DNA of 64,000 bases from Vicinamibacterales bacterium (GTDB lineage Bacteria > Acidobacteriota > Vicinamibacteria > Vicinamibacterales > JAMQPK01). Of the stretch, positions 15,010-55,597 are shown piece after piece. How positions within the stretch are numbered: position 1 is the stretch's first letter; each line of letters opens with the position of its first letter. The notes beneath the pieces are model-generated. The model searched no databases, was not told the DNA's origin, and saw only the letters and a program-made list of their open reading frames with translations. The translations under genes and the position numbers were made by a program. Location of the stretch: the NCBI GenBank assembly GCA_963775345.1, contig CAVZIS010000002.1, forward strand, positions 44,179 through 108,178, given 5' to 3'.

Positions 15010-15029
15010 ATTTCTTTTCTTCTTACCTG

Positions 15030-17222: not shown

Positions 17223-18829
<1,607 letters not shown>

Positions 18830-18833
<4 letters not shown>

Positions 18834-19807: not shown

Positions 19808-19811
19808 GCCG

Positions 19812-20636: not shown

Positions 20637-21032
20637 TTCGCCGTCTCCCTCGCAGGCAAACCCCGCTCGACGACCATCCGCATCGCTTCATCGATCGGGA
20701 TCCGCGCGATGCCGGCGTCGCGATTGACCCAGCCGTAACCGTTCAAAAGGGCCCGCTGCTGCTCACGCAGCTCATGCATGTCCTGCTGAGGGTGGTCCTG
20801 GAGCCGGGGCATCGGGGGCAGCTCTTCCTGCTGACCGGCGGCGAGCGGATACGCCTGCATCTGGGCTCTGTCGGTCTGGCGCTGATAGACGCTCTGCAGC
20901 TGCCACAAAAACACGAGAATGATCACTGCGGCCACGACCAGAGCGCATACCGAACCCGAGAATCGCGCGAACGTTGACGTCGCTTTCTTCGTGGACGATC
21001 TCGGGGTTGTCCTGCTCACGCGGTTCGGACAT
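20633..21032 (-). CDS. small single-TM protein encoded between actF and SCO (frame switch near 20950)
   Basis: The N-terminus MSEPREQDNPEIVHEESDVNVRAILGFG (ORF 20772-21032) continues into a TM helix and soluble tail in ORF 20633-21019 (ALVVAAVIILVFLWQL ... YGWVNRDAGIARIPIDEAM). Its position matches small subunits found in ACIII/oxidase clusters. Confidence 0.5.
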
Positions 21033-22212
21033 GTTTCAACGCCTCGCTGAATTCCGGGTCGTACAGCGGCAGAAGTGCGCGACCGCGCAGTTGGTGAATG
21101 AAGAAGGCGAGCCAGACGGCGGCGAGCGAAACCGGCACCATGACATCGAGCCAGTGCAGGTGGAACCCGTCATCGTGCGCGAAGGCGGGAGCCGCCAACC
21201 AGAACAGATCCACGAACCGCATCACCAGCAGACCCGCGGCGACCCTGGACAGCATCGGTGCGTGGCGCTTTACCGCGCGGGACAACAGCACGAGGAACGG
21301 CACGGCAAAATGAAAGATCACCAGTAACAGCGCAATGAACTGCCATCCATGCCCGGTACGGTGGATGTACCACTCCGTCTCTTCGGGGATGTTCGCCGAC
21401 CAGATGATGAGGTACTGCGAGAACCCGAAGTAGGTCCACAGCATCGTGAAGCCGAGCAGCAGATTGCCGAGATCGTGAAAATGGCCCGGCGAGATCAGGC
21501 CGTCGAGCGGCGCCCGCCTCGAAAGCCAGCTCAACACGACAATCGCGAACGCCATTGCCGAAAGCGCCTGGCCGCCCATGATCAACACGCCGTAGATCGT
21601 CGAAAACCAGTGGGGTTCGAGCGACATGAGCCAGTCGAATGCCGCAAACGTGATCGTCAAGCCGTACGCCAGCAGGCCCCCGGCACTGAGAAGCTGCATC
21701 TTGCGAGGAATGGCCGGATCGCCGGTCGCATCCTGTTCGAGCGACCACTTGTTCAGGAAGAAGGCGATGCCGTTCCACACGGCGAGATAAAACGCGGCGC
21801 GCGCCAGAAAGAACGGCACGTTCAGGTACGGTTGCTTCCACTGCAGGAGCGGATCCGCGGCCACGTGCGCCTGGTCGGCCCACGGATAGAGCGAACGAAG
21901 CCCGAGCGCGATCGGGATGAACAGGACCGTCAGCAAGGGCAACGTTCGGGTCGCCGCGCCGAGGATGCGGCGGGTGACGACTCCCCATGCGCCGCCGGAG
22001 ACCTGGTGGACCATGACCAGCGCCAGCGATCCGAGAGTCACCGACAGCATCCACATGTAAGCCGGCAGCAGGGAGCGAACGAACTGAGTCGGGTTGAGCA
22101 CGAGGCCGACGGCGCACACCGCTGTGCCGGCACCGCCGGCGAGAAGCAGCTTCGACTGCAGCTGCCTGAGCTCGGGGACCATCTCGTTGCCGATCGCGTT
22201 CAGCGCTGTCAT
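21016..22212 (-). CDS. actF: alternative complex III membrane subunit ActF
   Basis: Intact 398-aa polytopic membrane protein placed directly after actE. It is NrfD-like but lacks the ActC N-terminus. Assigned by cluster order plus membrane character. Confidence 0.75.
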   Translation of the reverse strand: MTALNAIGNEMVPELRQLQSKLLLAGGAGTAVCAVGLVLNPTQFVRSLLPAYMWMLSVTLGSLALVMVHQVSGGAWGVVTRRILGAATRTLPLLTVLFIPIALGLRSLYPWADQAHVAADPLLQWKQPYLNVPFFLARAAFYLAVWNGIAFFLNKWSLEQDATGDPAIPRKMQLLSAGGLLAYGLTITFAAFDWLMSLEPHWFSTIYGVLIMGGQALSAMAFAIVVLSWLSRRAPLDGLISPGHFHDLGNLLLGFTMLWTYFGFSQYLIIWSANIPEETEWYIHRTGHGWQFIALLLVIFHFAVPFLVLLSRAVKRHAPMLSRVAAGLLVMRFVDLFWLAAPAFAHDDGFHLHWLDVMVPVSLAAVWLAFFIHQLRGRALLPLYDPEFSEALKHVRTA

Positions 22213-22790
22213 CGCAGCTGTCCTCGGGCTTCAGGCGAGAGCTCAGAGGCAGCGGCGTACTGGCTCAGCTGCAGTGCGCGGATGTAGGCGGCAATCGCCC
22301 AGCGATCGCGCACGGGCACCTGCGATGCGTAGTCCGGCATGGCTCCAAAGCCATTCGTGATGACGTCGTAGATGTGTCCTGCCGGGGCCTGCCGGAGCCT
22401 GTCGACAACGAAAGACGGAGGGCGCCGATACCCTCGCTGGACGACCATCCCGTCGCCTTCGCCGGTGAGGCCGTGGCAGGGCGAGCAGTAGATGTCGTAT
22501 CTCTCCCGTCCGCGCCGCATCGTCGCGTCATCAATCTGAAACGGAAAAATGGTCGAGGGCTGTCCGTTGATTCTTCCCGTGTGAAGCAGCTCGTCCTCGA
22601 ACAGATGGCCCTGAGCAATCGTGCCTTCGATGGCGGGACGCGCCGAGCGTCGATCGGCAAAAAAATCCGCCGGTTTGTATGGTGTGTACTTCGGCTGGTC
22701 GTGCATGTCCTGCCGGCAGGCGATCGCAGATACGACGACCGCAACGACAGCGAAGCGTCTAATCGCTAATCCCAAATCCCTAATCCCCAA
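22209..22790 (-). CDS. actE: alternative complex III monoheme cytochrome c subunit ActE (start uncertain)
   Basis: Lipoprotein-like N-terminus (VVSAIAC), a single CSPCH heme motif and GFGAMPDY. Confidence 0.8.
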   Translation of the reverse strand: MGIRDLGLAIRRFAVVAVVVSAIACRQDMHDQPKYTPYKPADFFADRRSARPAIEGTIAQGHLFEDELLHTGRINGQPSTIFPFQIDDATMRRGRERYDIYCSPCHGLTGEGDGMVVQRGYRRPPSFVVDRLRQAPAGHIYDVITNGFGAMPDYASQVPVRDRWAIAAYIRALQLSQYAAASELSPEARGQLR

Positions 22791-22801
22791 TCCCTAGTCC
22801 T
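22760..22801. repeat. tandem heptamer repeat (TAATCCC)n, six units
   Basis: taatcgc taatccc aaatccc taatccc caatccc tagtcct spans the actD stop and the actE start region. Confidence 0.8.
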
Positions 22802-23340
22802 CAACGGTCGTGACCTCGCGCGCTCCGAGCGACTCGAGAAACTGTACGCGTCGTGTCGATGTTGAACTTCTGGTCGGCCGCCTCGATGCACAGGAAGAAC
22901 CGGTTGCGGCTTGCGAGCGCGAACCGTGGGACGTTGAACACTGGATGGAACGGCTGCGGCAGCCCGTTCAGTGCCAGCATGCCGAGCACGGCAGACAATG
23001 CGGCCGCGAGAATCGTCGTTTCGAACGTCACCGGAATGAACGCCGGCCAGCTATGCAGCGGGCGGCCTCCGATGTTCAAGGGATACGCCATCGTCGACGC
23101 CCAGTACTGCAATCCGTAGCCCGCGACACCACCGAAAATGCCGCCCGCGAGGACGATCTTGGGCAGGCGGTTGTCGTGCATGTGGAGCGCCTCGTGCAGT
23201 TCCTCGACGGGGACGGGCGAGTAGGCGTCCATTTTTCGATAGCCTTCCTGATACGAACGGCGCGCGGCGGCGACGAGCGCATGCGAGTCCTCGAACTCGG
23301 CCATCAATCCGTAAATCGTCGGACGGCCCGACGGCTTCAT
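22794..23340 (-). CDS. actD: alternative complex III subunit ActD (DUF3341; frame switch near 22845)
   Basis: [40 protein letters not shown] plus two TM helices. The ATG at 23340 overlaps the actC stop (ATGA). The likely true C-terminus [16 protein letters not shown] is in another frame. Confidence 0.8.
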
Positions 23341-24734
23341 CGCGCGGCCTCCGCATCCAACCTCGAGTCCGGGTTCAGCCGGACCTTTGTCCCATCGGGA
23401 CTCGCCTCGGGCACGAGCGTCCGCATCTCGAAGATCGAAATCATCGGAAGGAAGCGCAGGAACAGAAACAACAGCGCCAGGAACAGTCCGATCGTGCCGA
23501 TGTATGTGCCCCAGTCCCACATGGTCGGCATGTAGCGGCCCCACGAGGATGGCAGGAAGTCGCGATGCAGCGACGTCACGACGATGACGAAGCGCTCGAG
23601 CCACATGCCGACGTTGACGATCAAGGAGATGACGAAAAGCAGCGCGACGTTGGTCCGGATCCTCTTCACCCAGAGGAACTGCGGTGTCAGCACGTTGCAG
23701 AAGAGAAGCGCCCAGTACACCGGACCGTACGGCCCGGTCATACGGTTGCGCATCATGTAGACCTCGTACGTATTGGCGCTGTACCAGGCGGTGAACGCCT
23801 CGATCATGTAGCCATAGGCGACGATGAGCCCCGTCACCAGCAGAATCTTCGCCATGTTGTTCAGGTGCCGCTCGGTGATGAAGTCCTGGAGCCCGTAGAC
23901 GGTCCGGATCGGAATCGCCAGCGTCAGCACCATGGCGAATCCCGAATAGATGGCGCCCGCGACGAAATACGGCGGAAAGATCGTTGCGTGCCATCCGGGA
24001 ATCACCGAGATGGCGAAGTCGAAACTCACGATCGTGTGGACCGAGACAACCAGTGGCGTCGCGAGACCAGCCAGCAGGAGATACGCCGTCTCATACCGGT
24101 GCCAGTGATGCGCCGACCCACGCCAGCCCATCGCGAGAGCCCCGTAGATGACGCGTCCGGCTCTCGACTCGGACCGATCCCGCAAGGTGGCCAGATCGGG
24201 AATGAGGCCCACGAACCAGAACAGCAGCGAAACGGTCGCGTAGGTCGATACCGCAAACACGTCCCACACCAGTGGACTGCGGAACTGCGGCCACACGTCC
24301 ATCGTGTTGGGGTACGGGAACAGCCAGTGCGCCAGCCACGGGCGTCCCAGGTGTGCGATGGGGAAGAGGCCGGCGCAGGCCACCGCAAACAGCGTCATCG
24401 CTTCGGCGAAGCGGTTGATCGAGGTACGCCATGTCTGCTTGAAAAGCAGAAGAATCGCCGAGATGAGCGTGCCGGCGTGGCCAATCCCAATCCACCAGAC
24501 GAAGTTGACGATGGCGAAGCCCCACGCGACCGGATGGTTGATACCCCAGATGCCGACGCCGGTCGCGACCAGGTAGGCGAGCGACATCAGGAGAACGTTC
24601 GCGAGCGCAAAGGCGATGGCGAAGCCGAACCACCAGCCCAGCGGCGTCTTTCTCGTCAGAACGATCGCACTGATCTTGTCGGTGACGGTCGAGAACGTAT
24701 GCCCGGGCGCGATGACCGGCGGTGTGCGATTCAC
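23337..24734 (-). CDS. actC: alternative complex III quinol-interacting membrane subunit ActC (NrfD/PsrC-like)
   Basis: Intact ORF. The GTG at 24734 overlaps the actB stop (GTGA). About ten TM helices, with [23 protein letters not shown]. Confidence 0.9.
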
Positions 24735-27703
24735 TGTTTGTCCAGCTGTGGATTCGTGTCGGTGATCGCCGCGAGATAGGTCGTCCGCGGCCTGGTATTC
24801 AACTCGTGAAGGAGCGCATAGTCTCGCTGTTCGGCCTGAAGTCTCGACACCCGGCTGTTCGGATCGTTCAGGTTGCCGAACACGATGGCTTCGGCCGGGC
24901 AGACCGATTGACAGGCGGTCTTGACCTCGCCGTCCTGAATGACACGGCCCTCTCGTTCCGCCTGGATGCGTGCGGCGCTGATTCGCTGCACGCAGTACGT
25001 GCACTTTTCCATCACCCCGCGGCTGCGGACCGATACATCGGGATTGCGGCCAAGCTTGAGGCTCGGCGTGTCCCAGTCCTGATACTGGAGGAAGTTGAAG
25101 CGGCGGACCTTGTAGGGGCAGTTGTTGGAGCAGTATCGCGTCCCCACGCAGCGGTTGTAGACCATGTCGTTCAGCCCCTCGCTGCTGTGGGTGGTCGCTC
25201 CAACCGGACACACCGGCTCGCACGGCGCCGTTTCACAATGCATGCACGGAACAGGCTGGAAGTAGGTCTTCGGATTCTCGACCTCGCCCTGGTAATAACT
25301 GTCAACGCGGAGCCAGTGCATCTCGCGTCCGCGCATCACTTCCGCCTTCCCGACCACTGGGATGTTGTTTTCCGCCTGACAGGAGGCCACGCACGCATTG
25401 CACCCGGTACACGCGTTGAGATCGATCGACATCCCCCACTTGTAACCGCCGGCGCTCGCCTGCTCGGCGGTGAGGACGGGCCACAGGGAGGGAAGCTCGC
25501 GTTCGTCCTTCTTCAATGCCGGGAGCCCGGCACGCGGAACGACGCGAATGATGTCGCGCCCTTCCATCAAGTGGTGATATTGCACGCACGCGAGCGGCGA
25601 CGTGCCGCCGGTCAGAGAGATTTGCGCGCTCGTGCCGAAGGCCAGCGCGTCGGATGTTCTCAGCGCACCGGCGTTGAAGCCGCGATCGGCGCCAATACGG
25701 CCCGTGCGCGAGCGGCCGTACCCGAGGTGGAGGGTGGCGGCATCATCAGGGTGGCCGGCGATCGCAAACACTGCGCCTCGAATCGATCGTCCGCGATAGC
25801 GAACCTCCGCGACCGGTGCGTGAATCTGTCCGCGCTCGCCGCCGGTAAAGTCCGGCGTCGTCCGGCCACCAAGCCGCGCCAGCGTCGCCGGACTGACCAG
25901 TACGGCGTTGTCCCACGTGAGGTGCGTCAGCGGCTTGGGAAGCTCCTGCAACCATGCGTTGTTGTTGAAACGGCCGTCATGGACGGTGGGATCGACGCGG
26001 AATGCGATCTCGACGCCGGCCGCCGGCGCCGCAGGAGCCGTGCTGAACGCTGCAATTGACGCGGCGGGCCTGATCGAGCGCGCCGGAAGTGCGGTGTTCG
26101 CCATCACACCGTCGTGCACGGTGCGCCGCCAGAAGGTCTCGAATTCGCGGTCGGCAGCACCCAGCCTTTGTTGCCAGTGTTCCCGAACGACCTGATACGC
26201 CGACCGCTCCGGTCGATCGCTGAGTGTCGCGAGCACTTCGTGGGCCGAGCGCCCGCCATACAGCGGCGCGATCAGCGGCTGGACGATGGAGACGGTGCCG
26301 TCGAACGCTCGCGCGTCGCTCCAGGCCTCGAGAAAGTGCGCTTCCGGAATCTGCCAGTGCGAAATCGCCGACGTCTCGTTGGCGTGCAGGCTCAGGTGAA
26401 CGCGCACGCGAACCTTGCTCATGAGGTCTGCAAATCGCAAGTCGACCGGGGCGGTGTAGACCGGATTCCCCCCGAGGATGAGAAGGGCATCGACCTGTCC
26501 CGCCTCCATCGCCGAAGCGAGCTCGCGGATGGACTGCACGTGATCGACCGGATGCGACTCGATGGGGTCGGTGTAGAGAACTGTTTGGCCGGCGTTTCCA
26601 AGCGCTGCGTTCATCGCGTGGGCGAGCGCATGGACGACCGGCGGCTGCCCCTCGCCGGCGACGACCAGGCTCGAGCCGCGATGGCTGTTCAGGTCGTCGC
26701 GAACGGCTGCGATCCACGCCTGTGCTGTTGCAGGAAGGGGCACACCGCGATCGATTCCAGCCACGCCCAGATCGGCCGCGAGCGCGCGGGCGAGCGACTC
26801 AATCTGGCTGGGCCTGAGTGGCAGCCGGTGGTCCGCCTTCGCGCCAGTCGGCGTGGGCAGTGTCTCGGCGCAATAGAGGCGGCACCCCGCGCCTTCGGGC
26901 CGCCGGCGCTGCGCGAACTGCCGCGCGTAGCGGAGATTGCCCGTGCCGCAGCTGAGGAAATCGGAGTCGAGCGAGACGATGACGGCGGCGTTTTCGATGT
27001 TGTAGTAGGTCGAGACGCTGGTGCCGGCAAACATGCGGAGACCCGCCGCGGCGTTCACCTCGCCGCCCGGATCCCACTGATGCCAGGTCGCCGCCGGATA
27101 ACGCGCAAGAATTTCATCGATTTGTGCGCCGAGTGAGGGGGAGCAAACGGTCTCGGTGAGAATGCGCAGTCCTGCCCCCTTTGTTGCCTGCTGTGCTGTC
27201 GCCATGGTGCGCATCGCGCCAAGGAACGAGGACCACGGAAGGATGTCTCCCCTGTCGGTCAGCGTCTGCATGCGATCGGGATCGTAGAGATCGAGCAGTG
27301 CGGCCTGCGCGAAGGCATCGGTCGCCCCAAGGCTCGCGGGATGCATCGGATTCCCTTCGATTTTCGTCGGGCGTCCTTCGTGGCTTTTCACAAGAAGACC
27401 TGTCGCGCGCCCGCCGAGCGTCATCGCGGTTGCATAAAAGAGCGGCCTGCCGGGAATGATGGTTTCCGGCTGGCGGGTATACGGAAGAATCTGCTCTGCG
27501 GGCTGGCGAGTGCAGCCGGTCATGCCGGCCAGGGCAAGCGAGGCGCCCATCAATTTCAGGAACGTCCGGCGCTCGACCTCATCGAACGACTGAGGCAGGC
27601 GCGAGGCAAATTCGTCGGCAATGAGGCCGCTGAGGTTCGCGCCGTTCCTTTCCGCGAGCGTCCGCCAGAACTCCAGAGGATTCCCGGGCTTCATCGATGA
27701 CAT
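24731..27703 (-). CDS. actB: alternative complex III subunit ActB (molybdopterin-like domain fused to 4Fe-4S domain)
   Basis: Intact 990-aa ORF with a Tat signal ([16 protein letters not shown]) and C-terminal ferredoxin-type clusters ([47 protein letters not shown]). Confidence 0.9.
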
Positions 27704-28341
27704 GCGTTGCAGTCGGTCATTTTGCGGATCCGGTGTTTTTCGACGAGCGTCCGGCCCAGCTCGATCTGATTTTCGGGAGCGATGTAGCTCATGTTGAACA
27801 CCTCTTCACGCGGACGGAGGTAGCGCTCTGGGTGGCGATGACAATCGAGGCACCACTCCATCTGCAGCGAATGCTGCTTCCGCATCAGGGGCATCTTGTC
27901 CACCGGTCCGTGACAGGTAGAGCAGCCAACCCCTTTGGCGACATGAATGCTGTGGTCGAAGTACGCGAAATCGGGGAGATCGTGCACGCGCGTCCAGGCG
28001 ATCGGCGTGTCGTTTCGGAAGCTCTCGCGGACCGGCTCGAGGAACGGCGCGTTCGAGAAGATTTGTGAGTGGCAGTTCATGCACGTCCTGGTCGGCGGGA
28101 TTCCTGCGAACGCGGCTGTCTCGACCGTGGTATGGCAGTAGCGGCAGTCTATGCCGTTGCCCGCGACGTGACGTTCGTGGCTGAACTGGATTGGCTGCTC
28201 GCGGGCGACGTTCACCTGCGTGACCCACGGCGATCGATCGATTTGATAGGCGAGGTAGAGGAGGGCGGCGACGAAGAAGACAGCGCCGAAAATGCTTACC
28301 CGGGCAATCGTGTTCGCGCTGCGATGAAAAATCTGCGCCAT
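27691..28341 (-). CDS. actA: alternative complex III pentaheme cytochrome c subunit ActA
   Basis: Intact ORF with an N-terminal TM anchor and five CXXCH motifs (CRYCH, CMNCH, CSTCH, CLDCH, CNACH). The start is taken at MAQIFHRS. Confidence 0.9.
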   Translation of the reverse strand: MAQIFHRSANTIARVSIFGAVFFVAALLYLAYQIDRSPWVTQVNVAREQPIQFSHERHVAGNGIDCRYCHTTVETAAFAGIPPTRTCMNCHSQIFSNAPFLEPVRESFRNDTPIAWTRVHDLPDFAYFDHSIHVAKGVGCSTCHGPVDKMPLMRKQHSLQMEWCLDCHRHPERYLRPREEVFNMSYIAPENQIELGRTLVEKHRIRKMTDCNACHR

Positions 28342-28391
28342 ATTGCCGACGAACGTCCAGGACGGCAGCATATCACGTGGGGTGCAAGGGT

Positions 28392-29907: not shown

Positions 29908-31500
29908 CTACGTTCGAAATCCGTGAAGGAGACCTGAAAGCCGCGACGGTTCGCGTGCCTGGACGCTATCCGCGAACCGGAATCGGCTCAGAGTGTCTGG
30001 TCCCCACAGGTTTCCGACCGCCAGCATCAGTCGAAGATCCCCGCGGATGCCATCAGCGACAGACGCCTTGGAAAATATTTCCTTGAGCTGTGCAAATTTT
30101 ATCTCGCTCAACTGCACGTCGTGACGTCCGATTCTGAGCGTATGGTTGGGAAACGTGGTGCTTTCGACGAGCACCCCGAGGATCCGTTCGCGCCATGCCT
30201 CCGAAAATCTGGGAAACACCGATCGAAACCATGGTGTACCGAGCAGTTTCTTGATCTCCGTTCCATCGATCGTCACCCTCCCCTCGGCTCCGTCCTGCGC
30301 GACGGCGAGCGCGGCCGGATCCGACCGGTTGAGCGCCAACGCCAGGTCCCACAATGTCGGGAACGCGGACGGGATGTCCGGCCTCTGCTGGTCGGCCACT
30401 GGCCGGTCTGCCACCAGGTCGCTTGAAGGCTCTTCGTCCACGAGCAATGCCGGATGATCACACGCGATTTCGGGCTCCAGATTCCAGCGTATGTCGATCG
30501 GCTCATGGTTCCCGGTGTATTCGGCGAAGAGCGCGGTGACGCCCCATGGCCTCGGCATGTGAAACGCACGGGCGTAGAGCGGATTGTAAGGACTCGAATC
30601 AGCGCCCACCGCACGCGCTGCCAGCCGTCCCTTGATTTTTGCGTCCACGACGTTAGACCACTGGCCCTGAATGCAGATCAGCGATGTGCCGGGAGGCCTG
30701 CTGAAGCTGCAGAACGGATTGTCCCAGCATTCGGTCACCGCCTGTTCTATCTGCTCGTCGACGGGTTCGGCATCAGGCGATGGGTCGATCTCTGAGAATC
30801 CAATCCGCATCCGGCCGTGTCCGGCGAAAAGAGACGACAGATCCGAAGCATCGACTTGGGAAAGATCCCACAGGACGTACAGGAGACCGCGCAATGCCCG
30901 CGCGATCGGCACGTTCATTCGCTCCCACACGACCGATTGGGGCTGTGGATCTGACTCGACGTACCCCCGGTCGTTGAGAATCTCGATGAACCTGATATTC
31001 GCCGCGTCCAGCTGACGGCCGATGGTCAACGCGTGATCGAAGCGACGTTTCTCCACTTCGTGCCGATCGAACGATGGCCGGACGAACACAGGGATGACGA
31101 GCTTCTTCTGCTGGCGGGCAGCGAGCGTCACTGGGACGATCGTTCCGGCGCCCGTGCCCTTGCCGCCCGTCGCAATCACAATGACTACCGTGTACCCGCT
31201 GATGAGCGCCTCGATCTCGCGTCGCGATTCGTCGAAAGCGCGCTGCGCTACCTCCGGATCGTGCCTGGAGCCCAGGTGGCCCGTCGTCCGCGCGCCGATC
31301 AGCAGGCGGTCCTCTTGCGGGATATCCATCAGCGAGAACTGGTTCGTGTCGAGAAACCGGGTGGCGACCGATTGTCTCAACCGTTCTGTATACATCGCGT
31401 CTGTCTTCTGAGAGACGACGAGATCGCGATGGAACAGCGTCTTCACCGACCGCAGGATGTTGCCCCCGCCTCCGCCAAGGCTCATGAGAAGAATGTTCAC
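29908..31500 (-). CDS. divergent FtsZ/tubulin-superfamily GTPase with a roughly 200-aa C-terminal extension
   Basis: Intact 530-aa ORF. NILLMSLGGGGGNIL resembles FtsZ IGVGGGGxNA. IATGGKGTGAGTIVPV resembles the tubulin signature GGGTGTG. IPVFVRPSFDRHE resembles VVTKPFxFEG. SQVDASDLSSLF resembles the T7 region NVDFADV. The GTG start has GGAGG 7 nt upstream. Confidence 0.65.
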   Translation of the reverse strand: MNILLMSLGGGGGNILRSVKTLFHRDLVVSQKTDAMYTERLRQSVATRFLDTNQFSLMDIPQEDRLLIGARTTGHLGSRHDPEVAQRAFDESRREIEALISGYTVVIVIATGGKGTGAGTIVPVTLAARQQKKLVIPVFVRPSFDRHEVEKRRFDHALTIGRQLDAANIRFIEILNDRGYVESDPQPQSVVWERMNVPIARALRGLLYVLWDLSQVDASDLSSLFAGHGRMRIGFSEIDPSPDAEPVDEQIEQAVTECWDNPFCSFSRPPGTSLICIQGQWSNVVDAKIKGRLAARAVGADSSPYNPLYARAFHMPRPWGVTALFAEYTGNHEPIDIRWNLEPEIACDHPALLVDEEPSSDLVADRPVADQQRPDIPSAFPTLWDLALALNRSDPAALAVAQDGAEGRVTIDGTEIKKLLGTPWFRSVFPRFSEAWRERILGVLVESTTFPNHTLRIGRHDVQLSEIKFAQLKEIFSKASVADGIRGDLRLMLAVGNLWGPDTLSRFRFADSVQAREPSRLSGLLHGFRT

Positions 31501-37380: not shown

Positions 37381-38391
37381 CTATTGAACGTTGAAGATCG
37401 CGTTACAGCTGCCGTCGACGTCGTTCGCCGTCGTCTTATCGCCGGCCAACCCTTTGCGAACAGCTTGTCTGACCTGTTCCGCGTACTTGAGATAAGCGTT
37501 CCGAGCGCTCTGGGCGAGGCTGCTGTCCTTCGGCACAGTGAACATGTCGACGATTTCCCGATCCCATTGAACGATGCCTATTTCCCGGAGACTGCGACGG
37601 GTGGGCGCGAAGTCGTGAATGCCCAGCGCGATGCCCGCCGTGGAATTTATGAGACGGCATTCCTTGAGCACGCGCTGGCCTTCGAAAAGCTTGTCGTTTG
37701 TCTGCGTGCTGGAACTGGCTGCGCCCATGAGCGGCAGGACCACCGATTGAACACCGGCGGCGTCCAGCGCTGCGAGGCAGCCGGCGATGCCCTTGCGCAC
37801 GCGGTCTTGCGCGAACAGCTCCCGCCGGTCAATCGCGCCGCCCTTGGGGTAGTCGGTCGCAATCAAACAGACCATTTTCGGAAAGGCGCCGCCACTGGCT
37901 TTGTTGTTCACGCCGCGCGGTAACTGCGCCACGAACGTATCCACACCAATGGCCAGAAGGCCTGCCTCGCGGCCGGACGGAGCGGGTGATTGCTTCCGGC
38001 GTGTCGCGATCTGGTCTTCCAGGTCGCGCAGGACATCGGGCTGTTTCCGGACGCGATCGACGAGCGTGCGCTGCGTTGCGGGGTCTGGCGATGTAATCAG
38101 GAGCTCGGTATTTGTCGGGACGATCGCAGCGTCAGGTCGAAACTGAGCATTGTCGAACGCGCGTTCGAGATCCCCGGCGCTGAGATACACACGCGAGGGC
38201 AATGCTGCAGTTTTCGCCGGCGGCAGGTCCACCGGCAGAAAGCTCAGTGCAAGCGCCTCATGTCGTTTCTGGTCGCTGCTGAACATGACAGCAACGGGCC
38301 CCTGCTGCGCGATGGCAACTTCGGCCGGAAGCCAGCAGAAGCTCGCTATCAGGAGGGCGGCAAGGTGAATGCGGTGCGTTCTTTGAGCCAT
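37381..38391 (-). CDS. secreted hypothetical protein
   Basis: The start is taken at MAQRTHRIHLAALLIASFCWLPAEVAIAQQ (signal peptide). The remaining 300 aa have normal composition. The upstream part of ORF 37381-38808 is Pro/Arg/Ser-rich and not protein-like. Confidence 0.45.
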   Translation of the reverse strand: MAQRTHRIHLAALLIASFCWLPAEVAIAQQGPVAVMFSSDQKRHEALALSFLPVDLPPAKTAALPSRVYLSAGDLERAFDNAQFRPDAAIVPTNTELLITSPDPATQRTLVDRVRKQPDVLRDLEDQIATRRKQSPAPSGREAGLLAIGVDTFVAQLPRGVNNKASGGAFPKMVCLIATDYPKGGAIDRRELFAQDRVRKGIAGCLAALDAAGVQSVVLPLMGAASSSTQTNDKLFEGQRVLKECRLINSTAGIALGIHDFAPTRRSLREIGIVQWDREIVDMFTVPKDSSLAQSARNAYLKYAEQVRQAVRKGLAGDKTTANDVDGSCNAIFNVQ

Positions 38392-38885
38392 AGCCCTGGA
38401 GAAAGCCGGCAACGGCGGCCATTCTATCGCGAAGCTTCCTTCGGCGCGAAAAGAGCGCTTGAAACTCCGCAGCGGTGGCTGCCGCCGTGTTTTCAAACCG
38501 ATCGCCGTCGCGCTGTGCCCTATCGACCGCACTCCTGCCCGCCCGGCAATACAACCTGCGCGTGGTGTGTGGTCCAGCGGCCTGGAGCGAAGGCGCCTGA
38601 ACCAGGCGAGCGACGGCGACGCTGCTCCTGGGCCGGCAACCGCATCTTGCAGCCTGGGGACGGCGTGAGATATGCGCAGTGGGCTCGATAGCGCACCCGG
38701 TCGCGGGGCGGAAGATGCGGGTGCCCGCGTCGTCGAGCCTGGTTCGGGGCATTCGCTCAGGCCACTGGACACTACATGCCTGACAGGCTCAGGGCACGCT
38801 GGATTCAACCGCCCTACTGCTCAGAGGCGTTTCGGCCAATCGAAATCGGAGGCCCATGTAGCGCGAGGCTGGAAGTGTTCAGAAA

Positions 38886-40644
38886 TTACACTGCGGCGAC
38901 CTTCTGCGATCTCTCTGGCGCCGGCATGCCCTGACAGGCGCACATGAACTCGACGGCTGGCGTGATGGTCTTCCGCCATGCGTCAAGCTGGTTCGCGTCG
39001 ACCCCCGATTCTTCGATCGCCTTGAGCAGACCCTCCAGAAACAGGTCGTAATGGCGCCTTGTCAAGCCCAGCGGCGTGTGCCGGACCGCGAGATCGCGAA
39101 GCCGTGGGCAGCCGCGCTCCGGATTGAAGTCCAGGAGCAGTTGAACGGCGCCATTGAGGATCTTGTACTGCCGTTCCATGTCGATATCCGCAAACCGCTG
39201 CTCCACGTCAGGAGATGCGGCGAACAGGCCGCTGTAAAAACGCGCGAAGATGGCTCGTTCGGTGCCCGCCAGCTGTAATCGCAGGTAGCTGGCCTTCGCC
39301 ACTTTCCTGTTCATCTCGTCTTCCGACTCGGCGACCTCGATGTCGGAGAGGAAGAGACGCACGTCTCGCATCGACGGCCAGCGATCGAGCGGGTTGATAC
39401 GGAGCAGGCGGGACACGATTCCGGCGAATTCCGGGGAGCGTTGCGCCCACCGGCCGTTTCCCGACTCGAGATCGGCGAACAGGCGACGCCTGCCTTCGAG
39501 ATCGCAGGGCGCGGCGACCCGAGGTACGCGTTCTCCCCCGAGTAGTTCCATTGCGATAAGGCCCAGGGAATACTGGTCGGTCAGTTGAGTGGAAGGGTGG
39601 CCGAAGAAGCGTTCTGGAGTCATGTAAGCGAGTGATTCGCGATCCACCAGGAAATTCCCGGCCATCTTTGATTCCTCGCTCAGGACATTCGAAAAATCCA
39701 CTGCCGACAACCGGGCTGCGCCTGTGCACTCGATGAGGATGTCCGACGAACATATCTCGCCACGGATCCAGTTTTTCTGATGGACTTCTTCGACGGCCCG
39801 TGCCAGGTCCAGCAGGATGTTTCTTACCGCACCGAGCGGAACGCCGTTCGGGTATCGCAGCAGATACTTGCTGAACGGTTCCCCCTGGACGAACTCCGAC
39901 ACCAGTATCTCCGGCTGTGCGTCCATCGAGGACTCGATGATCTTGATGAAGGCGGGGCTCGTCAGCTCGGCCGCTTTCGCCGTGGCGTCCTGGAATTTCA
40001 GGCGGGCCCAGTCGTCGAATTCCGACGCCATGAGAATTTTCATGCTGACCGTTCGGGCAGGGTCTTTCTGCTGCGCCCGGTACACGATCGAGAACTTGCC
40101 AGCCCCAATCTCCTCGCCTATTTCGGTACTTGTCGCCCAGCCGCGACTGCACCTCCTGCGGCAGGCTCTGTCGGCGGCTGCTCGTCACTTTCGGCAGGAA
40201 GCCGAAGTCCTCGACGATCTGAAGACAGATCTGCTGGACTGCCGCGCGCTGTTCGGGGACCGACAGTTGGTCGAGAGGACGCTCCGGATCCCACGCCGCC
40301 TGGATCGTGCCGAGCAGTGTCTCGGTGTAGAGCGTCGGCGAGATCGGGACCCAGTAAATGGCCACGCCGGCGGTCTTGGCGAGACTCAGCAGCCGGTTCA
40401 ACTCAACATCGGTGATGAAGTCGGATCTCAGGAATTGAGGCGTGACCAGCAGCAGGCCCGCGCAAGTGGCATTGAGCGCCAGGTCGATGTTCTTCGACCA
40501 CTCCTGTCCAACCGCGATGCTCTCGTCAGACCAGACGCTGATGCTGCCGCGGTTGACGGCGGGCTTGAACATTTCCGTGAATTCATCTCGCCATCTGGCG
40601 TCCTCGCGCGCGTAGCTGATGAAGACCTGATTACGTCCAGGCAT
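38886..40644 (-). CDS. TIR domain / kinase-like domain / globin domain fusion protein (one frame switch near 40125)
   Basis: TIR: VFISYAREDARW ... LLLVTPQFLRSDFITDVELNRLL (ORF 39208-41079 frame). Kinase-like: EIGEEIGAGKFSIVYRA, VSMKIL, degenerate catalytic loop WIRGEICSSDILI, DFS for DFG, MTPERF and DQYSLG. Globin: FYSGLFAASPDVEQRF ... LAVRHTPLGLTRRHYDLF (ORF 38886-40085). The junction LGDKY|EIGEEIG fits one extra C in TACCGAA. AAGGGG precedes the ATG at 40644. Confidence 0.75.
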
Positions 40645-41091
40645 GGTCATCCCCTTGCTACCCAGCTGGACGTCGCCCGACGGGCGGACAGACCGACTGC
40701 CCGTGCGGGGCGGCAGGCTGGGCTCGATTAAGACGGCGGAGGGCGCCATTATATGCTTCATCGAGATGACCGGAAACAAGGCGACTGCGGTTGACCCATA
40801 TATGGTGTCGTGACATCGCCGAACGTTACGGCAGATGGCTGAGCGAAGAGGGTCGTCATGAGCGCAGCTCCGACGCAACCCTCTGGCGCGCTTCGACAGC
40901 ACGACGTGAGTGACCTTCTCGGACGGGACATGCTCGGTGACCTCGTAGCCGAGCTGGGGCAGGTCGATGCCGGCAAAGAGCGCCTCGCGACCTGGCAAAG
41001 GGCCTGGCTGCGTTCTTTGCCCGTCACCCGATCGGCGCGGGCGAGAATCCGAACGGAGGGTAGAAGTTACTCGGCGCACGGCGGGCGCGTT

Positions 41092-42523
41092 TCAAACGAC
41101 GTCGACGCGGGCCATCATGCTGTGGTCCTCGTGTTCGAGATTGTGACAATGGAGCAGGTAGCGTCCCCTGTACCCGCTCCACCGGATGATGACTTCCACC
41201 TCTTCACCGTCTTCGATCGCAACAGTATCTTTCCAGCCGCGCTCCTGCCGAAGCGGCGCACGCCCGTTCCGGCTCAGTATCTGGAACGGCGCGAGATGTG
41301 TGTGCACCGGATGCAACATCGTCTGCCCAAGAAACCGCGATTGACGAAGCGCCAGATCTCGATGTCGTCGAGTTGGGGATCGGCGTCGACTCGCAGCGGA
41401 TCGAATGGCTCGTCATTGATGACCCAACGAACCCCCGGCGGCACGCCGAGCGTGGGCTTGCCTCCAAACACAAAAGTACGACTTCGATCGGCCTGTGACC
41501 GATCGAGCGGCTCGATTTCGCTGAGACGGTCTGGAACCCTGCTGTCATCGCGCGCCGTGCGGACGACATCGAACCGCATGACGGAGCGGAGGTTTCCTTC
41601 TCCTCGACGGTTCTCCAGCACTACGCGGGTGCCAGGCGGGTAGACGGAGAAATCAACGACGATTTCGACCCGTTCCGCCATCGCCAGGCGGATGGTCGAA
41701 AGGGCGACTGGCTTCGCCAGCAGGCCTTGATCGCCTCCAATCTGAATCAGCGGGTGATGCGTGCTCAACGCCAGGCGCATTGCGGTCGCATTCGAGGAAT
41801 TCAAGATACGGAAGCGGTCTTTCTCGCCGCGACTTCCAGCACCGGCCATGGCGCGCCGTTCACCAGCATCACTCGACCCGTTGCGCCGTGGTGTGCGTCG
41901 TGGTCGTAGTCGAGCTGACCGTCGGTCGTGAACGCCCGGTCGTGCAGCATCAGGGGAATATCGTACGGACCGTTGGGCAGCTGCTCGTCGATCTCGGAGT
42001 CCTCCTTCAACAGGTAAAAGCCGGCGAGACCCATGTAGAGATTTCGTCCGCTCCCACGCCAGCTGTGATCGTGATACCAGAGCGTGGCTGGTCGCCCGAG
42101 GTTGTCGTACGCGTAGGTGCGTGTTCCTCCAGGGGCAACGGTATCGGTGGGGAAGCCATCCGACTGCGGGCGTGTCATACCGCCATGGAGATGCGCGACG
42201 GTTGGAACGGCCAGACCGTTCGTGTGCGTCACCACAGTCGCCCTTCCTCGGCGAGCCTCGATCGTCGGGCCGGGAAAGATGCCGTCATAGCCCCAGATGC
42301 GCGTGCGGATGTGGGGGAAGATCTCGACCGGCGCTTCACGCTGAGCGATCTCGTAGTAATCGGCTATCGAGTCGCGCCGGACCGGCTGCAGGACCGGAGG
42401 GACCGGAGGCGGGATGCGGAACTTCGGGATCGAAGGATGCGCGCCCAGCGGCCGTGGGACCGCAAGATGGAGCAGGGCAGCGGAGCCGCGCGCCAGAAAC
42501 TCGCGACGATTCAGTGCCTCCAT
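41092..42523 (-). CDS. Tat-exported multicopper oxidase (frame switches near 41830 and 41310)
   Basis: Tat signal NRREFLARGSAAL. Copper sites are HLHGG, WYHDHS, HPVHTHL and HCHNLEHEDHSMM, spread across ORFs 41801-42523, 41274-41849 and 41092-41319. Confidence 0.85.
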
Positions 42524-43011
42524 TTCCGCGCCTCTTCGTCCTGGTACTCGATCGGGATGCCCGAGCGAGCTTCAACGACCTCCAGCGTCGAGCGCACGAC
42601 GTTTTTTCCCAGCTCGATGACCATGACCTCGGTTCTACCCTGCTCACCTGCGTAGGTCAGCGTGAGGTAATGCGCACGCCTCTTTACCGGCAGCGACATG
42701 AGGCCGACGGGGCCGAGAATGGCGGTCGCGGCGACGACGAGCGGCACCCGACGAGACGCGCGCTGACCGAATTCGAGATGACGGATTGATTCGTAGTCGA
42801 TGTGGAGGGGTTCGGAGGCACGAGAGCTGTTCTCTGCAACGAACACGAAGTGGCGTGGATCGATCTCGACGCGCCCTTCGATGCGCCCACCTGTCGTGTT
42901 GAATCGCGCGATCGTGCCTCCCACGTACGCCGCCTTGTCGCCCGCGAGGGCCGACGATAGGGCTGGAGTCGTGAGCACGACGAGCAGCGCCAATGCCGTC
43001 ATACGTTTCAT
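42511..43011 (-). CDS. hypothetical secreted protein
   Basis: Intact 166-aa ORF with a signal peptide (ALALLVVLTTPALSSALA). The ATG overlaps the glycosyltransferase stop, and its own stop overlaps the oxidase start. Confidence 0.55.
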   Translation of the reverse strand: MKRMTALALLVVLTTPALSSALAGDKAAYVGGTIARFNTTGGRIEGRVEIDPRHFVFVAENSSRASEPLHIDYESIRHLEFGQRASRRVPLVVAATAILGPVGLMSLPVKRRAHYLTLTYAGEQGRTEVMVIELGKNVVRSTLEVVEARSGIPIEYQDEEARKWRH

Positions 43012-44315
43012 GAGATTCTCCGGGTCTCGACAGTTGAGATGGCCGAACGCTCGATGTCTTCCAGCGGGATGTCTTCCAGCTCGCGTAGCAGCGCGTTGTC
43101 ATCGGCATCCCGGCGCACCGATTCTCCAAGCTGTTGCGCCGAGGCTCGAAAGCTGGGGTTGTGGAGTCTTCTCTCACGGCGGCTGCGATCGCCTCGGGCC
43201 GCGCCGTCCGCTTGAGTGCGATGCCGGCGCCGCGTGCGGTGACGCGGACCGCTGTATCGTCCTGGTCGCGGCCATGCGGGAGCAACACCATCGGCACGCC
43301 GGCCGCGAGCGCTTTCACGACGGTGCCATGTCCGCCGTGCGTGACCACGGCGGCCGCGTGTCGCAGCACCTCACGATGAGGTGCGTGCGCAAGAATGGTG
43401 ATATTGGGCGCGGCGTCCAGCGCTGTGGCGTCGATCGCGGGGCCGGTCGTAACGAAGCCGTGGACTGGAAGAGTGCCCAACGCCTCAATGACACGCCGCA
43501 ACGGACCGATCTGATCCTGGAACGTTGACGACATCGAGACGAGCACGAGCGGTTTGCCGCCGCCAGGCGGTGTCCATGATGATCCCTGCGACCAGACAGG
43601 ATCCTCGAGCACGGGGCCGACGATCGAACCCCAGCCGGCAGCGTTGCCGGAAAGTCGAGTGCGGGTGACGTCATGACGAGCTGCCGGTGTGCGCCGCGCA
43701 CTTCATCGAACACGTGTCGGAGTGGCGCGAGACCGTACGCACGCCGCAGCGTGTTGAGGCGCGTGAGGCCTTTGCCGTCCCACTGGCGCTCAATGATGCG
43801 GTTGAGGATCTCGTCGCGCCATCGGCCGAGGCGGCCGCGCGCTGGCCGGAGGCCAATGCCGAACGGTGGTATGCCTCGCGCGGGCAGAGGATAGATGTTG
43901 GGAAACAGCACGACGTATGGAACGCGAGCTGCTTCGGCGGCCAGCATGCCGCCAAGACAGAACATCGAGCAGACCACGAGCGCAGGCTGGCATTGAGCGA
44001 TGGCGTCTTACATCGGAGGCATATGCCGTGGCGGGACCACGAGCATCGTGTCGATCAGCCGAGCGACGAGCTGCCACGGATACTTGCATTCCCAGTCTCG
44101 TATTGGATCGTGCTCGGGCCGGCGATCCGTCCGGTTCGGCGCACGAACCCAGCGCTGGAACTCTGCACCTGTCGAGCGGACATCGGGTGCGACAGAATCG
44201 TCGGCAAGCACCGTCACCGCATGGCCCCGGTCGATGAGCCGTCGTGCGGCGTGGAGTCGGGTGGCACATTGCCGCCCCCGTCGACGACAGTGAACAGGTA
44301 CTGGCGGGGTCTCAT
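43008..44315 (-). CDS. GT1-family (MGT/UGT-like) glycosyltransferase (at least three frame switches)
   Basis: N-terminus MRPRQYLFTVVDGGGNVPP, then RLIDRGHAVTVLA and the C-terminal nucleotide-sugar motif VVTHGGHGTVVKALAAGVPMVLLPHGRDQDD. The pieces lie in four frames. Confidence 0.75.
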
Positions 44316-48329: not shown

Positions 48330-48788
48330 TCACTTCTTCCACATTCTGGGATCGAAGCTGAACGGCTCCGGGCGTCCAATTGCAAGCTGCGCAAACTCTC
48401 GATGAGTGGGGTTCAGCGCAAAGTTCCGCTCGTGCGGAATGACGACGGAAGGTACCGAGAGGACTGCGGTTCTGGACGCGCGGAACCACTGGTCGCCGAT
48501 TGCTGCGAGTGTTGGTGGAGCTGGAAATGATCGCCAATCGGGGGGCAACGTTTCCAGGTCGACCGACTCGGTCGCGATGTCTTCGTGGATGTCCACCGGA
48601 ATCGCGACGAGGTCCACGAGCTCGAGGTCGGAATCGGTGTGGACGAACCGTTCCAGCGCGGCGAGTGACAGCGTCGCCGACGTGAAGACCGCCGGGACGC
48701 CTCGCGGCGTCCAGCGGCTCCCATGACGCCGCGCGCCCTCGCCATCACACGCGGCGTGGGCAGCACTGGCGATTCGCCAGACGCGCAC
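48330..48788 (-). CDS. RES-domain toxin
   Basis: Intact 152-aa ORF with GSRWTPRGVPAVFTSATLSLAALE and SVPSVVIPHERNFALNP. Confidence 0.85.
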   Translation of the reverse strand: MRVWRIASAAHAACDGEGARRHGSRWTPRGVPAVFTSATLSLAALERFVHTDSDLELVDLVAIPVDIHEDIATESVDLETLPPDWRSFPAPPTLAAIGDQWFRASRTAVLSVPSVVIPHERNFALNPTHREFAQLAIGRPEPFSFDPRMWKK

Positions 48789-53607: not shown

Positions 53608-54478
53608 TCAACAAAACACGTCACGAAAAGGCCCAAGAAACTTCCTCTCCGGCGACCAATCTGTGATGGCAAAAACGAGGTCGGAGAACGCCTCGCCGAA
53701 GTCGTTTTCCAACGCCTGTCGAAAATCAATTGCAGTGCGGTACGGATCATTCTCAAAAGCGCCGCAACCCCATGCGCCCAGGACGAGCGTGGCATATCCG
53801 AAAGCCCGTGCAATAGTGAGCACGCGATGAATCCGCTTCCGTAAGAGGTCCCCAGCTTGCGGCTGGCCAATAGCTGGCGCATATGGAGCGGCACATGTAA
53901 TGAAACTCAAGAGCCACGGGTGTGGCAACTCCGTCCCGTCATCCATCCGAAAGACGGGAACGTCAGGGGAATAAATTGCCCAGTCCGTGGAGTCTGGGTC
54001 ATGGGCGTTTGCGGTGCTCCCGATACATCGGATCATCGATGAGTGTCTGATGGAGAGCGCTGGATCGACAAAGCACCTCTTCCTGCGCTCTGGCTCCGCT
54101 CAGGAAACCACCACCTGGCTGGATTCCGTTGGCGAAATTCAGGGCAAGGGGTCGCAGTCCGCGAGCCAGTAGACGTCGCGACGCTCCGAGCGTTGTCTCA
54201 TTCGTGACCTGCACCCGTGTTTCCGCAAACGCGCTGCGCACGGTAAGTGGCAGGGTAGCGTCTGGGGCAATGCTCCGCTTAGCGGCACAGGCAGCCTGCA
54301 CAGCGTCACGCCAAACGACTTCCTGACCGGCTTTGGTGACATAGCGGCCGCTACGAGCAGCATTCACCGCCGAACGCCCGAGTGCTGCAGCGACATCTCT
54401 GGGGATGTCCAACTCCTGCCGCCGGGAGGCGGCCATCTGCGCGGAATCGAGGCAGGGCAGTATATGCAGCGTGCTCAT
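53608..54478 (-). CDS. bacterial-type poly(ADP-ribose) glycohydrolase-like macro-domain protein (TIGR02452/DUF2263; frame switch near 54020)
   Basis: PARG signature GGG-x7-QEE (NFANGIQPGGGFLSGARAQEEVLCRSS). The C-terminal piece has LVLGAWGCGAFENDP. Confidence 0.8.
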
Positions 54479-54517: not shown

Positions 54518-55597
54518 CTACCATCCAGGATAACGGTTCGACCACGCGTCAGACTCGTCGAACCCCGTGTAGAGGTCGTTCGCGACAGATTCAATCTGCG
54601 CGCGGAGCTCGAGCCCGTCCAGCCATTTCGCTGGGATCGCATCGATCCCGAGCATCAGCCCGAGGAGATTCCCGGTGATCGCGCCCGTGCTGTCGCTGTC
54701 GCCGCTGTGATTCACTGCCAACAACACGCCTCGTGCGAAATCGTCCTGAGCGCTCAGGGCGCAATAGAGCGCGATGGCCAGGGCCTCTTCGCCAACCCAG
54801 CCGCCACCCATGCGCTCAACAGCCTCAGGTGAGGGAATGACGTCCGCTTCACGCCACAGGGCGACCGCCTGGCGAATCGCGTCCGAGCACTCCTCGTGAC
54901 GCGTATTTCCTCGCGTCTTCCAATATCCGAAGTGCTCCTTCGATCGCGTCCGGCAGAGTCCTTCCCTCGGTGAGATTCTGGATGACGGCGGCGAAGCAGC
55001 CGGCCGAGTAGTAACCTGACGGATGGCCGTGCGTGATGGCCGCCACCTCGCAGCCGAAGTCGAAGGCGGCCTTCTCGTCCCTGGCCATGAGCCCGATGGG
55101 CGCGACGCGCATGACGCCGCCACAGCCCTTGCTGTCGTTCAGAGGTTGCTCGAGTGTGCCCATCTTCGCGCCACGCAGTGCTGAGAGGCAGGTGTTCCCG
55201 GGAGCGCGCCGCGCGTGCAAGCCCTCGACGCCGATCAGCCAGCCGTCCATCTTGTCTTTCGAGAACTGCGATCGGCTCTGCTCTCCCTGCGTGTGCAGCC
55301 ACCGAATGTAGGCATGATGCATGACGCTGCCCGGGTGACAGATTCCTTTGTCGTGCCACCTGACATCGGCACGCAACACGCCTTCAGCCGTGAAGAGCGT
55401 CATCTGCGTGTCGTCGGTGATCGCTCCGCGCCTGCCGTAGGCAAGGTCGTAGTCGGCGATTCCTGCCGGACCGTACTTCGCGGATTTCGTGGATGCTGAG
55501 AACTCCACCGGTGCGCCGAGCGCGTCGCGACGGCACCGCCCAACAGGCAGCCGCTGAAATGTTCGCGGGTCCGCCAGCTTTCTGATTTACGTTGCAT
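54518..55597 (-). CDS. ADP-ribosylglycohydrolase (ARH/DraG family; frame switches near 55533 and 54900)
   Basis: GCLLGGAV(GD)ALGAPVEF fits with one missing G. Other motifs are [45 protein letters not shown] and [18 protein letters not shown]. Confidence 0.85.

Follow-up and report, generated by a model that had tools for sequence, protein, structure and literature searches.

TIR-domain enzymes that cleave NAD+ (NADases) require a conserved glutamate and self-association, and their established roles are those of immune executioners or signal generators set off by infection or injury. In SARM1, a multidomain TIR NADase with ARM and SAM domains, the enzyme is restrained by a domain that senses a small molecule in cis, namely nicotinamide mononucleotide (NMN) or NAD+. 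Sensors built around a haem globin are known from elsewhere to drive chemotaxis, cyclic di-GMP, histidine-kinase and cyclase outputs. In the globin-coupled sensors (GCSs) the haem-ligand signal passes through a middle domain to the output, whose activity is often oligomerisation-dependent (PMC7033309), and in a 2006 census of globins chimeric globins were described only as flavohaemoglobins and N-terminal GCSs (PMC1457004). Here we describe a gene in which a TIR domain, a kinase-like domain and a C-terminal globin are joined, found at 38886..40650 on the minus strand of a 64,000-nt stretch of contig CAVZIS010000002.1 from a Vicinamibacterales bacterium (hereafter the window, meaning this whole stretch) and defined from a list of open reading frames (ORFs), three-frame translation, Pfam and the DNA of relatives. 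Comparison with its homologues shows that the TIR-pseudokinase-globin fusion is a real, widespread and undescribed family, present in uncultured Acidobacteriota (including Vicinamibacteria-like members), Myxococcota and Gammaproteobacteria, and that it is a new architecture assembled from known modules. It is at the level of the family that the finding is surprising; the copy in the window is a frame-broken instance of it, probably through assembly error.

All gene coordinates are on the minus strand unless stated otherwise, and residue numbers count from the ATG at 40650 of the mended 587-aa protein. Once one base is taken out, the gene is an open frame that meets no other stop before the TAA at 38888-38886 and measures 587 aa, or 585 aa if read from the second ATG. 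Translation could begin at the ATG at 40644-40642 (MPGRNQVF..., with GGGG 6 nt upstream) or at the in-frame ATG at 40650, the former being the more likely start, and a scan of 38300-41200 for promoters and terminators gave no signal above chance. As deposited, the sequence does not encode one polypeptide. Instead it holds two overlapping ORFs in different frames, of which the one at 39208-41079 reads MTMPGRNQVFISYAREDA...DVELNRLL...QSRLGDKY in the three-frame translation and then runs out of register with the kinase-globin sequence, while that at 38886-40085 reads ...EIGEEIGAGKFSIVYRAQQKDPARTVSMKIL...WIRGEICSSDILI...VDFSNV...AYMTPERF...FYSGLFAASPDVEQRF...VRHTPLGL... and ends at the TAA given above. 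The first-pass annotation, a model's reading of the letters alone, had proposed a single polypeptide of three domains; the domains, their motifs and their coordinates all stand, but the deposited gene is split between two frames. It had also put a frame switch exactly at the TIR-kinase junction, which is where three-frame translation places it, between Tyr175 (tac, 40128-40126) and Glu176 (gaa, 40124-40122), one extra C at 40125 (40125..40126) producing the join aag tac C gaa ata.

The fusion itself, which the first-pass annotation had treated as in need of confirmation, is carried as one ORF by about 160 cluster representatives elsewhere. A homologue search returned roughly 110 cluster representatives at 48-82% identity, mostly of 576-655 aa with TIR_2 and Pkinase annotations and many also annotated as Globin, and 84 of these 110 close representatives extend over the whole protein, TIR N-terminus and globin C-terminus included. 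When 1.84 billion 50%-identity representatives were searched exhaustively with HMMER, the best 150 matches included 84 proteins of 540-730 aa. Most of these align to the profile without interruption over positions ~5-580, at scores as low as about 200 bits, and the best 150 thus supply some 80 more 50%-identity clusters that share the end-to-end architecture. When distant members were scanned with Pfam, TIR and kinase domains were detected in 10/10 and Globin in only some, and the C-terminal region of these proteins aligns to the globin section of the profile. Every member has its globin at the C-terminal end. Moreover, of 23 homologous loci surveyed at the DNA level, 21 could be judged (L099 and L101 cover only part of the gene), and in 18 of these, spanning 27-82% identity, the gene is an uninterrupted single ORF. 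Named sources are Vicinamibacteria and other Acidobacteriota, a Polyangiaceae metagenome-assembled genome (MAG; HEX9620089.1) and a Gammaproteobacteria MAG, whose 616-aa homologue (L010, 3696-5546; 32% identity over aa 6-569) retains the TIR Glu as well as the Tyr, Phe, Gln and His of the globin, and has YGV in the kinase catalytic loop. In one relative, P0233, TIR_2 is replaced by a CAP12/Pycsar-type TIR, while the kinase-like domain is the same and the C-terminus again corresponds to the globin section of the profile; this is an effector-module swap of the kind typical of sensor-effector fusions. Source annotations are generic only ('protein kinase' or 'hemoglobin-like flavoprotein'), and a search with the globin alone for other architectures recovered just fragments of the TIR-kinase-globin family and a few single-domain globins. 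No description of a TIR-globin, TIR-kinase or TIR-pseudokinase, or globin-kinase fusion was found in the literature searched, beyond which further papers are possible; this agrees with the earlier remark that no globin wired to a TIR domain was known.

The TIR domain (aa 8-150; 40201..40629) carries FISYAREDA as its N-terminal motif, W40-x-D42, and a putative catalytic Glu83 (40404-40402) within DVELNRLL. In a full-length scan of the mended protein Pfam TIR_2 (PF13676) matches aa 9-94 at 34.2 bits against a cutoff of 28, and distant family members reach 39-72 bits. Matches to the TIR structures 7uxr, AbTIR (7uwg and 8g83) and PdTIR (3h16) were obtained with phmmer, and in the alignments to 7uxr, 7uwg and 8g83 Glu83 coincides with the YEL-motif Glu of AbTIR, the catalytic residue of that enzyme. 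Conservation among the 110 close members is near complete at Phe10 (90/90), Tyr13 (89/90), Asp17 (90/91), Trp40 (92/93), Asp42 (93/94) and Glu83 (93/94), and the TIR Glu is retained in relatives at 25-35% identity. The N-terminus had been read at first pass as TIR_2-type with a conserved Glu, and these observations bear that reading out; they point to a bona fide TIR_2 domain with a putative catalytic Glu and a predicted NADase activity.

At the other end of the protein lies a 3-on-3 globin domain (aa 455-575; 38925..39287), which contains both motifs quoted at first pass, FYSGLFAASPDVEQRF and VRHTPLGL. Pfam Globin (PF00042) matches the isolated C-terminal segment at 25.0 bits (cutoff 22), whereas in the full-length scan this region gives Bac_globin only, at 19.6 bits and under its cutoff of 21; across the family, Globin is matched by 24/25 members and Protoglobin (PF11563), weakly, by 1/25. 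Modelled alone with AlphaFold2 (AF2) the domain has a pLDDT (predicted local distance difference test) of 92.9 and a pTM (predicted template-modelling score) of 0.85, and the top Foldseek matches of this model are all 3-on-3 globins at TM-scores of 0.76-0.84 (PA3967, HGbI, Cgb and flavohaemoglobins). A profile of the globin domain run against the PDB found PA3967 (1tu9, 3.7e-19), HGbRL (3wfw, 6e-10), Cgb (2wy4, 1e-9) and flavohaemoglobins (2e-8 to 1e-7), and no HemAT, GsGCS, DosC or protoglobin structure was among its matches at E <= 1. Since sensor-lineage globins are missing from these matches, the domain belongs to the flavohaemoglobin / single-domain lineage and not to the sensor lineage. 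The residues expected of a haem pocket are conserved in close members: Tyr472 (39236-39234; 101/104), Phe486 (39194-39192; 99/104), Gln494 (39170-39168; 100/103) and the proximal His524 within VRHTPLGL (39080-39078; 97/102), which we take to be B10, CD1, E7 and F8, respectively, labels assigned by matching motifs against the E. coli flavohaemoglobin sequence and not from a computed alignment. Trp558 (38978-38976) is found in 98/102. Tyr472, Phe486, Gln494 and His524 are invariant in two family alignments (A1 and A2), and the Tyr, Gln, His and Trp are also kept in distant representatives. The earlier call of a C-terminal globin with a proximal-His-like VRHTPLGL therefore agrees with the Pfam score, the model, its structural matches and the conserved pocket. 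Taken together with the TIR Glu, these patterns of conservation indicate that the chemistry under constraint in the family is that of the TIR active site and of the haem pocket.

Between the two, residues 175-440 (39330..40128) form a kinase-like domain of the Hanks fold, identified from Pfam Pkinase, Foldseek and motif statistics. Pfam Pkinase (PF00069) matches aa 175-424 at 75.5 bits (cutoff 31.7), and Foldseek of the full-length AF2 model (pLDDT 79.7, pTM 0.55) retrieves Stk1/PknB, PknA and PpkA at target TM-scores of 0.73-0.79, Stk1/PknB scoring 0.78-0.79 with an E-value of 1e-11; as this search returned kinases only, the globin was modelled as a separate segment. The intact Gly loop and VAIK-like Lys, the degenerate catalytic loop and the DFS noted at first pass were all located. 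The Gly loop IGAGKFS begins 8 residues past the Tyr175/Glu176 break (Gly184, 100/100 close members), and beta3 Lys204 (40040-40038; 103/103) lies in VSMK. Further on, RGEICSSD (WIRGEICSSDILI; 39764-39741) stands in place of HRDLKPxN, DFS (39698-39690) in place of DFG, and YMTPE in place of APE, with Pro345-Glu346 (39617-39612) present in 110/110; Asp358 (109/110) and Arg423 (107/108) are likewise conserved, and a DxWSxG-like motif is common to this domain and Hanks-type kinases. The catalytic loop of the close clade has the consensus R-G-E-x-C-x-S-[DN], built on Arg296 (108/108), Gly297 (108/108), Glu298 (106/108), Cys300 (99/109) and position 303 (Asp in 67, Asn in 42), so that the HRD position is Asp in 0/108 and the Lys position is Cys in 99/109. 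At the DFG position the close clade reads D[FVL][ST], with Asp in 97/110, Asn in 9/110, and Ser or Thr for the Gly. In the wider superfamily DFG is mostly lost and the loop is variable (YGxLRPSN, HEGLLPSN, IGPLRPSH, HLNIKPSN; L010 has YGV), and distant representatives keep the beta3 Lys and the Pro-Glu of APE while loop and DFG are scrambled. Because neither the catalytic loop nor DFG is conserved across the superfamily, the domain is best read as a pseudokinase, constrained as a fold and not as a phosphotransferase, in keeping with the pseudokinase scaffold suggested at first pass. Nucleotide binding is plausible for the close clade, since its members retain the beta3 Lys and the DFG Asp. Two further features were observed in the close clade only: a motif, A-S-E-[FL]-D-[DE]-W, that shows strong conservation at aa 208-214 (40028-40008), right behind the beta3 strand, and the near-invariant Cys300 (39752-39750) at the catalytic-loop Lys position, which could be redox-relevant beside a haem domain.

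The frame break in the window copy can be set against the intact relatives L001 (80% nucleotide identity) and L002 (82%), from which the extra C is the sole frame-breaking difference (tacCgaa versus tac-gaa). Relative to these two the gene is under purifying selection on both sides of the break, with ratios of nonsynonymous to synonymous substitution (dN/dS) of 0.11-0.16 in the TIR, 0.11-0.13 in the kinase-like domain and 0.17-0.23 in the globin, and it contains no second lesion. Counted from split Pfam profiles (gene calling based on G+C at third codon positions being too noisy), the window holds at least five further frame breaks in four other genes, and at least six in 64 kb when the TIR-kinase-globin gene is included. 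COX1 (17204-18833) lies in two overlapping ORFs, covering Pfam positions 1-200 and 197-436, with an extra T at ~18108 in an ultra-conserved motif ('gtgTctgttccagcac'); a multicopper oxidase (41092-42523) lies in three ORFs, an ADP-ribosylglycohydrolase (ARH; 54518-55508) in two (profile 26-197 and 191-286) and a TonB-type outer-membrane barrel (13325-15033, plus strand) in at least two. A glycosyltransferase at 42644-43612 may be broken N-terminally too. The split of COX1 is a sign of an indel-prone assembly, and because other genes of the window, including this essential respiratory one, break alike, we favour assembly error over mass pseudogenisation. Among the judgeable homologous loci that are not intact, two bear single-base shifts and one (L100) is rearranged. 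L091 (2748-4488; ERZ25039588) has a 1-nt insertion at aa 180/181, 15 nt from the break in the window, and the break in L006 (8001-9759; ERZ25039464) falls within the globin, at aa ~518. With L100 set aside, such clean breaks occur only in one European Nucleotide Archive project with 'contig_N' names (2/5 versus 0/17 elsewhere, Fisher p = 0.04), a style of naming that looks like that of a long-read assembler. A mutational hot spot at the TIR-kinase junction was considered but seems unlikely, as L006 breaks in the globin, L100 is rearranged and the rest are intact; the proximity of the L091 break is more probably coincidence or ascertainment.

We consider it probable, on these grounds, that the extra C at 40125 is an assembly indel and that a single polypeptide is the product of the native gene. 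That the window copy is instead a true recent pseudogene, made by a real 1-nt insertion perhaps because a TIR effector is costly, seems to us unlikely: the insertion is indeed present in the sequence as given, and a second copy whose break lies just 15 nt off might point to a favoured site of inactivation, but at least four other genes of the window including COX1 are broken in the same way, the reading frame carries no other lesion and low dN/dS on either side of the break, and the third broken copy, L006, is interrupted elsewhere. Moreover, L091 was chosen for a fragment length like that of the window, an ascertainment bias for which its 15-nt proximity is given little weight. The two overlapping ORFs that the deposited sequence does encode would be accounted for by two natural genes, one specifying a TIR protein and the other a protein of kinase and globin, or by a programmed +1 frameshift. 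However, the relatives are uninterrupted and no conserved shift site is shared by any of them, which rules this candidate out for practical purposes and leaves it extremely improbable; in addition, past Tyr175 the TIR frame reads on for ~300 codons out of frame with the kinase-globin sequence, and the downstream ORF starts at a GTG that lies after the Gly loop.

For the function of the intact protein we tentatively propose, giving the whole account somewhat less than an even chance, that one gene encodes a cytoplasmic TIR-pseudokinase-haem globin protein that acts as a haem-ligand-gated TIR NADase, its split in the window being an indel error of assembly. In this scheme the globin would bind haem via His524, and its TyrB10/GlnE7 distal pocket would take O2, NO or CO, or report the redox state of the haem. 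The resulting conformational change would be relayed through the kinase-fold middle domain, which has presumably lost its phosphotransfer chemistry and would serve as a scaffold or dimerisation switch, and which in the close clade may still bind nucleotide. This relay would control the self-association of the TIR domains that is needed to form active sites, and the assembled TIRs would cleave NAD+ via Glu83, leading to NAD+ depletion or to ADP-ribose or a cyclic ADP-ribose isomer as a signal. Several points weigh against this proposal. Each step of it, from haem binding and ligand dependence to oligomerisation and NADase activity, is one that we infer; the AF2 model gives no confident inter-domain geometry (pTM 0.55); the globin is not of the sensor lineage but of the flavohaemoglobin / single-domain one, in which the globins characterised so far are mostly enzymes or O2 carriers; and the close clade keeps its Lys, its DFG Asp (97/110) and an invariant loop Glu and Cys, so that its middle domain is perhaps not catalytically dead. 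The last point could be taken further, with the middle domain as an active atypical enzyme (a kinase with Glu298 as base, or AMPylation-type ATP chemistry) regulated by the globin in the manner of HRI, and the TIR as its adaptor or substrate. We regard this as quite improbable: the close clade does combine Lys in 103/103, an Asp (97/110) or Asn (9/110) at the DFG position, R-G-E in 106-108/108, Cys in 99/109 and always Asp or Asn at the catalytic-loop Asn position, but the canonical HRD Asp is never present, and across the superfamily, where the TIR Glu and the haem residues are maintained, the loop varies freely and DFG disappears. An active catalytic centre is disfavoured because an essential centre would not drift as this loop and DFG do.

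The same biochemistry could also answer to a different trigger and serve a different role, as a single-gene anti-phage abortive-infection protein in which infection would be sensed by the kinase-like domain or the globin and followed by NAD+ depletion through the TIR, a reading that we hold to be possible but doubtful. Separately, the modules do match defence models in PADLOC (ThsB at 3.8e-11 and SAVED_TIR at 8.5e-10 for the TIR, mad6 at 2e-28 and PD-T4-6 at 4.5e-24 for the kinase-like domain), some homologues lie beside DDE transposases and a patatin gene (L003) or beside PIN/Phd and metacaspase genes (L005), and P0233 carries a Pycsar-type TIR. However, no PADLOC model covers the architecture, and with matches at the level of single domains only, a known defence system was rejected. 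Most neighbourhoods are housekeeping or metabolic: in P0069 a complete napEDABC operon for periplasmic nitrate reductase ends 184 bp upstream of the homologue, on the same strand of a 461-kb contig, which may be a hint, seen once, of a link to nitrate/NO physiology, and other homologues lie by OsmC and flavoprotein genes (L004), an ABC transporter (L090) or amidase and dioxygenases (L089). L006 lies by a two-component system and transporters, and the close relatives L001, L007 and L008 by an NHL protein. No neighbour gene is common to the 14 homologue neighbourhoods that were compared (13 from DNA, P0069 from its gene table only), nor did the flanking genes of the window match any of 12 homologue loci by tblastn, and on these loci a conserved operon partner was rejected. 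A strictly conserved haem pocket also has no obvious phage-sensing role. Because the neighbourhoods all differ, the flanking genes do not recur and no whole-protein PADLOC model exists, the family is a stand-alone gene and is not consistently in defence islands. A non-immune alternative would be housekeeping TIR signalling in soil bacteria, with the haem globin sensing O2 or NO and the pseudokinase switching the TIR on; we judge this rather unlikely, and give no better chance to the outputs that it would have, an NAD-derived second messenger (a cyclic ADP-ribose isomer) or the throttling of NAD+ into dormancy.

In the window the TIR-kinase-globin gene is set apart by intergenic gaps of ~440-530 bp from its neighbours, the multicopper oxidase upstream and a gene for a secreted protein downstream. 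The latter (37381-38808) has an apparent signal peptide (MAQRTHRIHLAALLIASFCWLPAEVAIAQQ...) and no Pfam or PADLOC match, and adjoins none of the homologues. The RES, PARG and ARH genes that the first-pass annotation had mentioned are all in the window: a RES-domain gene, probably the toxin of a RES-Xre pair, at 48330-48788, and a microbial-type PARG at 53999-54478, directly beside the ARH. These genes, all related to NAD or ADP-ribose, lie 9-15 kb away with no evidence of linkage, and since they are unlinked and the homologues have no conserved neighbourhood, a conflict-system context for the gene is unsupported. A respiratory cluster occupies 16539-28371 and comprises alternative complex III, with its multihaem cytochrome (27691-28371), Fe-S subunit (24731-27703), NrfD-type subunit (within 23337-25223) and ActD (22801-23994), and then SCO1 (19812-20636), COX2-cytochrome c (18830-19807), COX1 and COX3 (16539-17222). 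A tubulin/FtsZ-family gene is found at 29908-31500. Towards the end of the window, around 60031-62062 (plus strand), G+C falls to 0.56-0.59 and short ORFs with partial UvrD_C and FRG matches are probably fragments of larger genes.

If the proposal of a haem-gated TIR NADase is true, gas or redox sensing would be linked directly to NAD+ cleavage or NAD-derived signalling, so that globin sensors would gain a new class of output and TIR enzymes a trigger of a new kind; should the housekeeping alternative be the correct one, gas sensors would have a new class of output and this would be the first case of a TIR enzyme under the control of such a sensor. The family may also offer a natural example of a bacterial pseudokinase that acts as an intramolecular relay. 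The haem-gated hypothesis is directly testable, as sequences of intact orthologues exist and the assays are routine. As to the window itself, the gene call is split by a probable assembly indel, one among several there.

Compared module by module, the family keeps much of its known relatives and departs from each of them in a particular way. With the Hanks-type kinases (PknB/Stk1, PknA and PpkA) and the defence kinases PD-T4-6 and MADS Mad6 it has in common the fold, the Gly loop, the beta3 Lys, and the APE-like and DxWSxG-like motifs, but here HRD has become RGE, the loop Lys Cys, and DFG D[FVL][ST], and distant members are without the catalytic motifs. PA3967 (1tu9), HGbI/HGbRL, Campylobacter Cgb and the globins of flavohaemoglobins are the closest solved relatives of its C-terminal domain (E 3.7e-19 to 1e-7, TM 0.73-0.84), in which TyrB10, GlnE7 and HisF8 are retained; HGbRL is a chimera as well, of a globin and Roadblock/LC7, but all of these are single-domain or N-terminal globins with no TIR or kinase-fold fusion. 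The bacterial TIR NADases AbTIR, BtTIR, PdTIR, ThsB of Thoeris, TIR-SAVED and TIR-STING are similar in their TIR_2-type domain and in the Glu that aligns with the AbTIR YEL Glu, and activation by induced self-association is expected here also. They differ in that the sensor here would be a globin acting via a pseudokinase and not a cyclic-nucleotide sensor or a phage trigger and, in contrast to Thoeris and other multi-gene TIR systems, no partner effector such as ThsA lies near the homologue loci examined and no partner gene is conserved. SARM1, as is generally known, likewise places a TIR NADase and its regulatory domain in one polypeptide, although the relationship in sequence is limited to the TIR.

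The closest parallel in design is with the globin-coupled sensors (HemAT, EcDosC/DgcO, PccGCS, BpeGReg and AfGcHK), which also combine a haem globin, a middle domain and an output that is linked to oligomerisation (PMC7033309). In GCSs the globin is N-terminal and of the sensor-globin lineage (PF11563), whereas in the TIR-kinase-globin family it is C-terminal and of the flavohaemoglobin / single-domain lineage (Globin in 24/25 members, Protoglobin in 1/25); the middle domain is here a kinase fold, and the output is a TIR, which is absent from the listed GCS outputs of methyl-accepting chemotaxis protein, histidine kinase, diguanylate cyclase and adenylate cyclase (PMC7033309). We would expect these proteins to function like GCSs in design, with the order of the domains reversed and a TIR domain as the new output.

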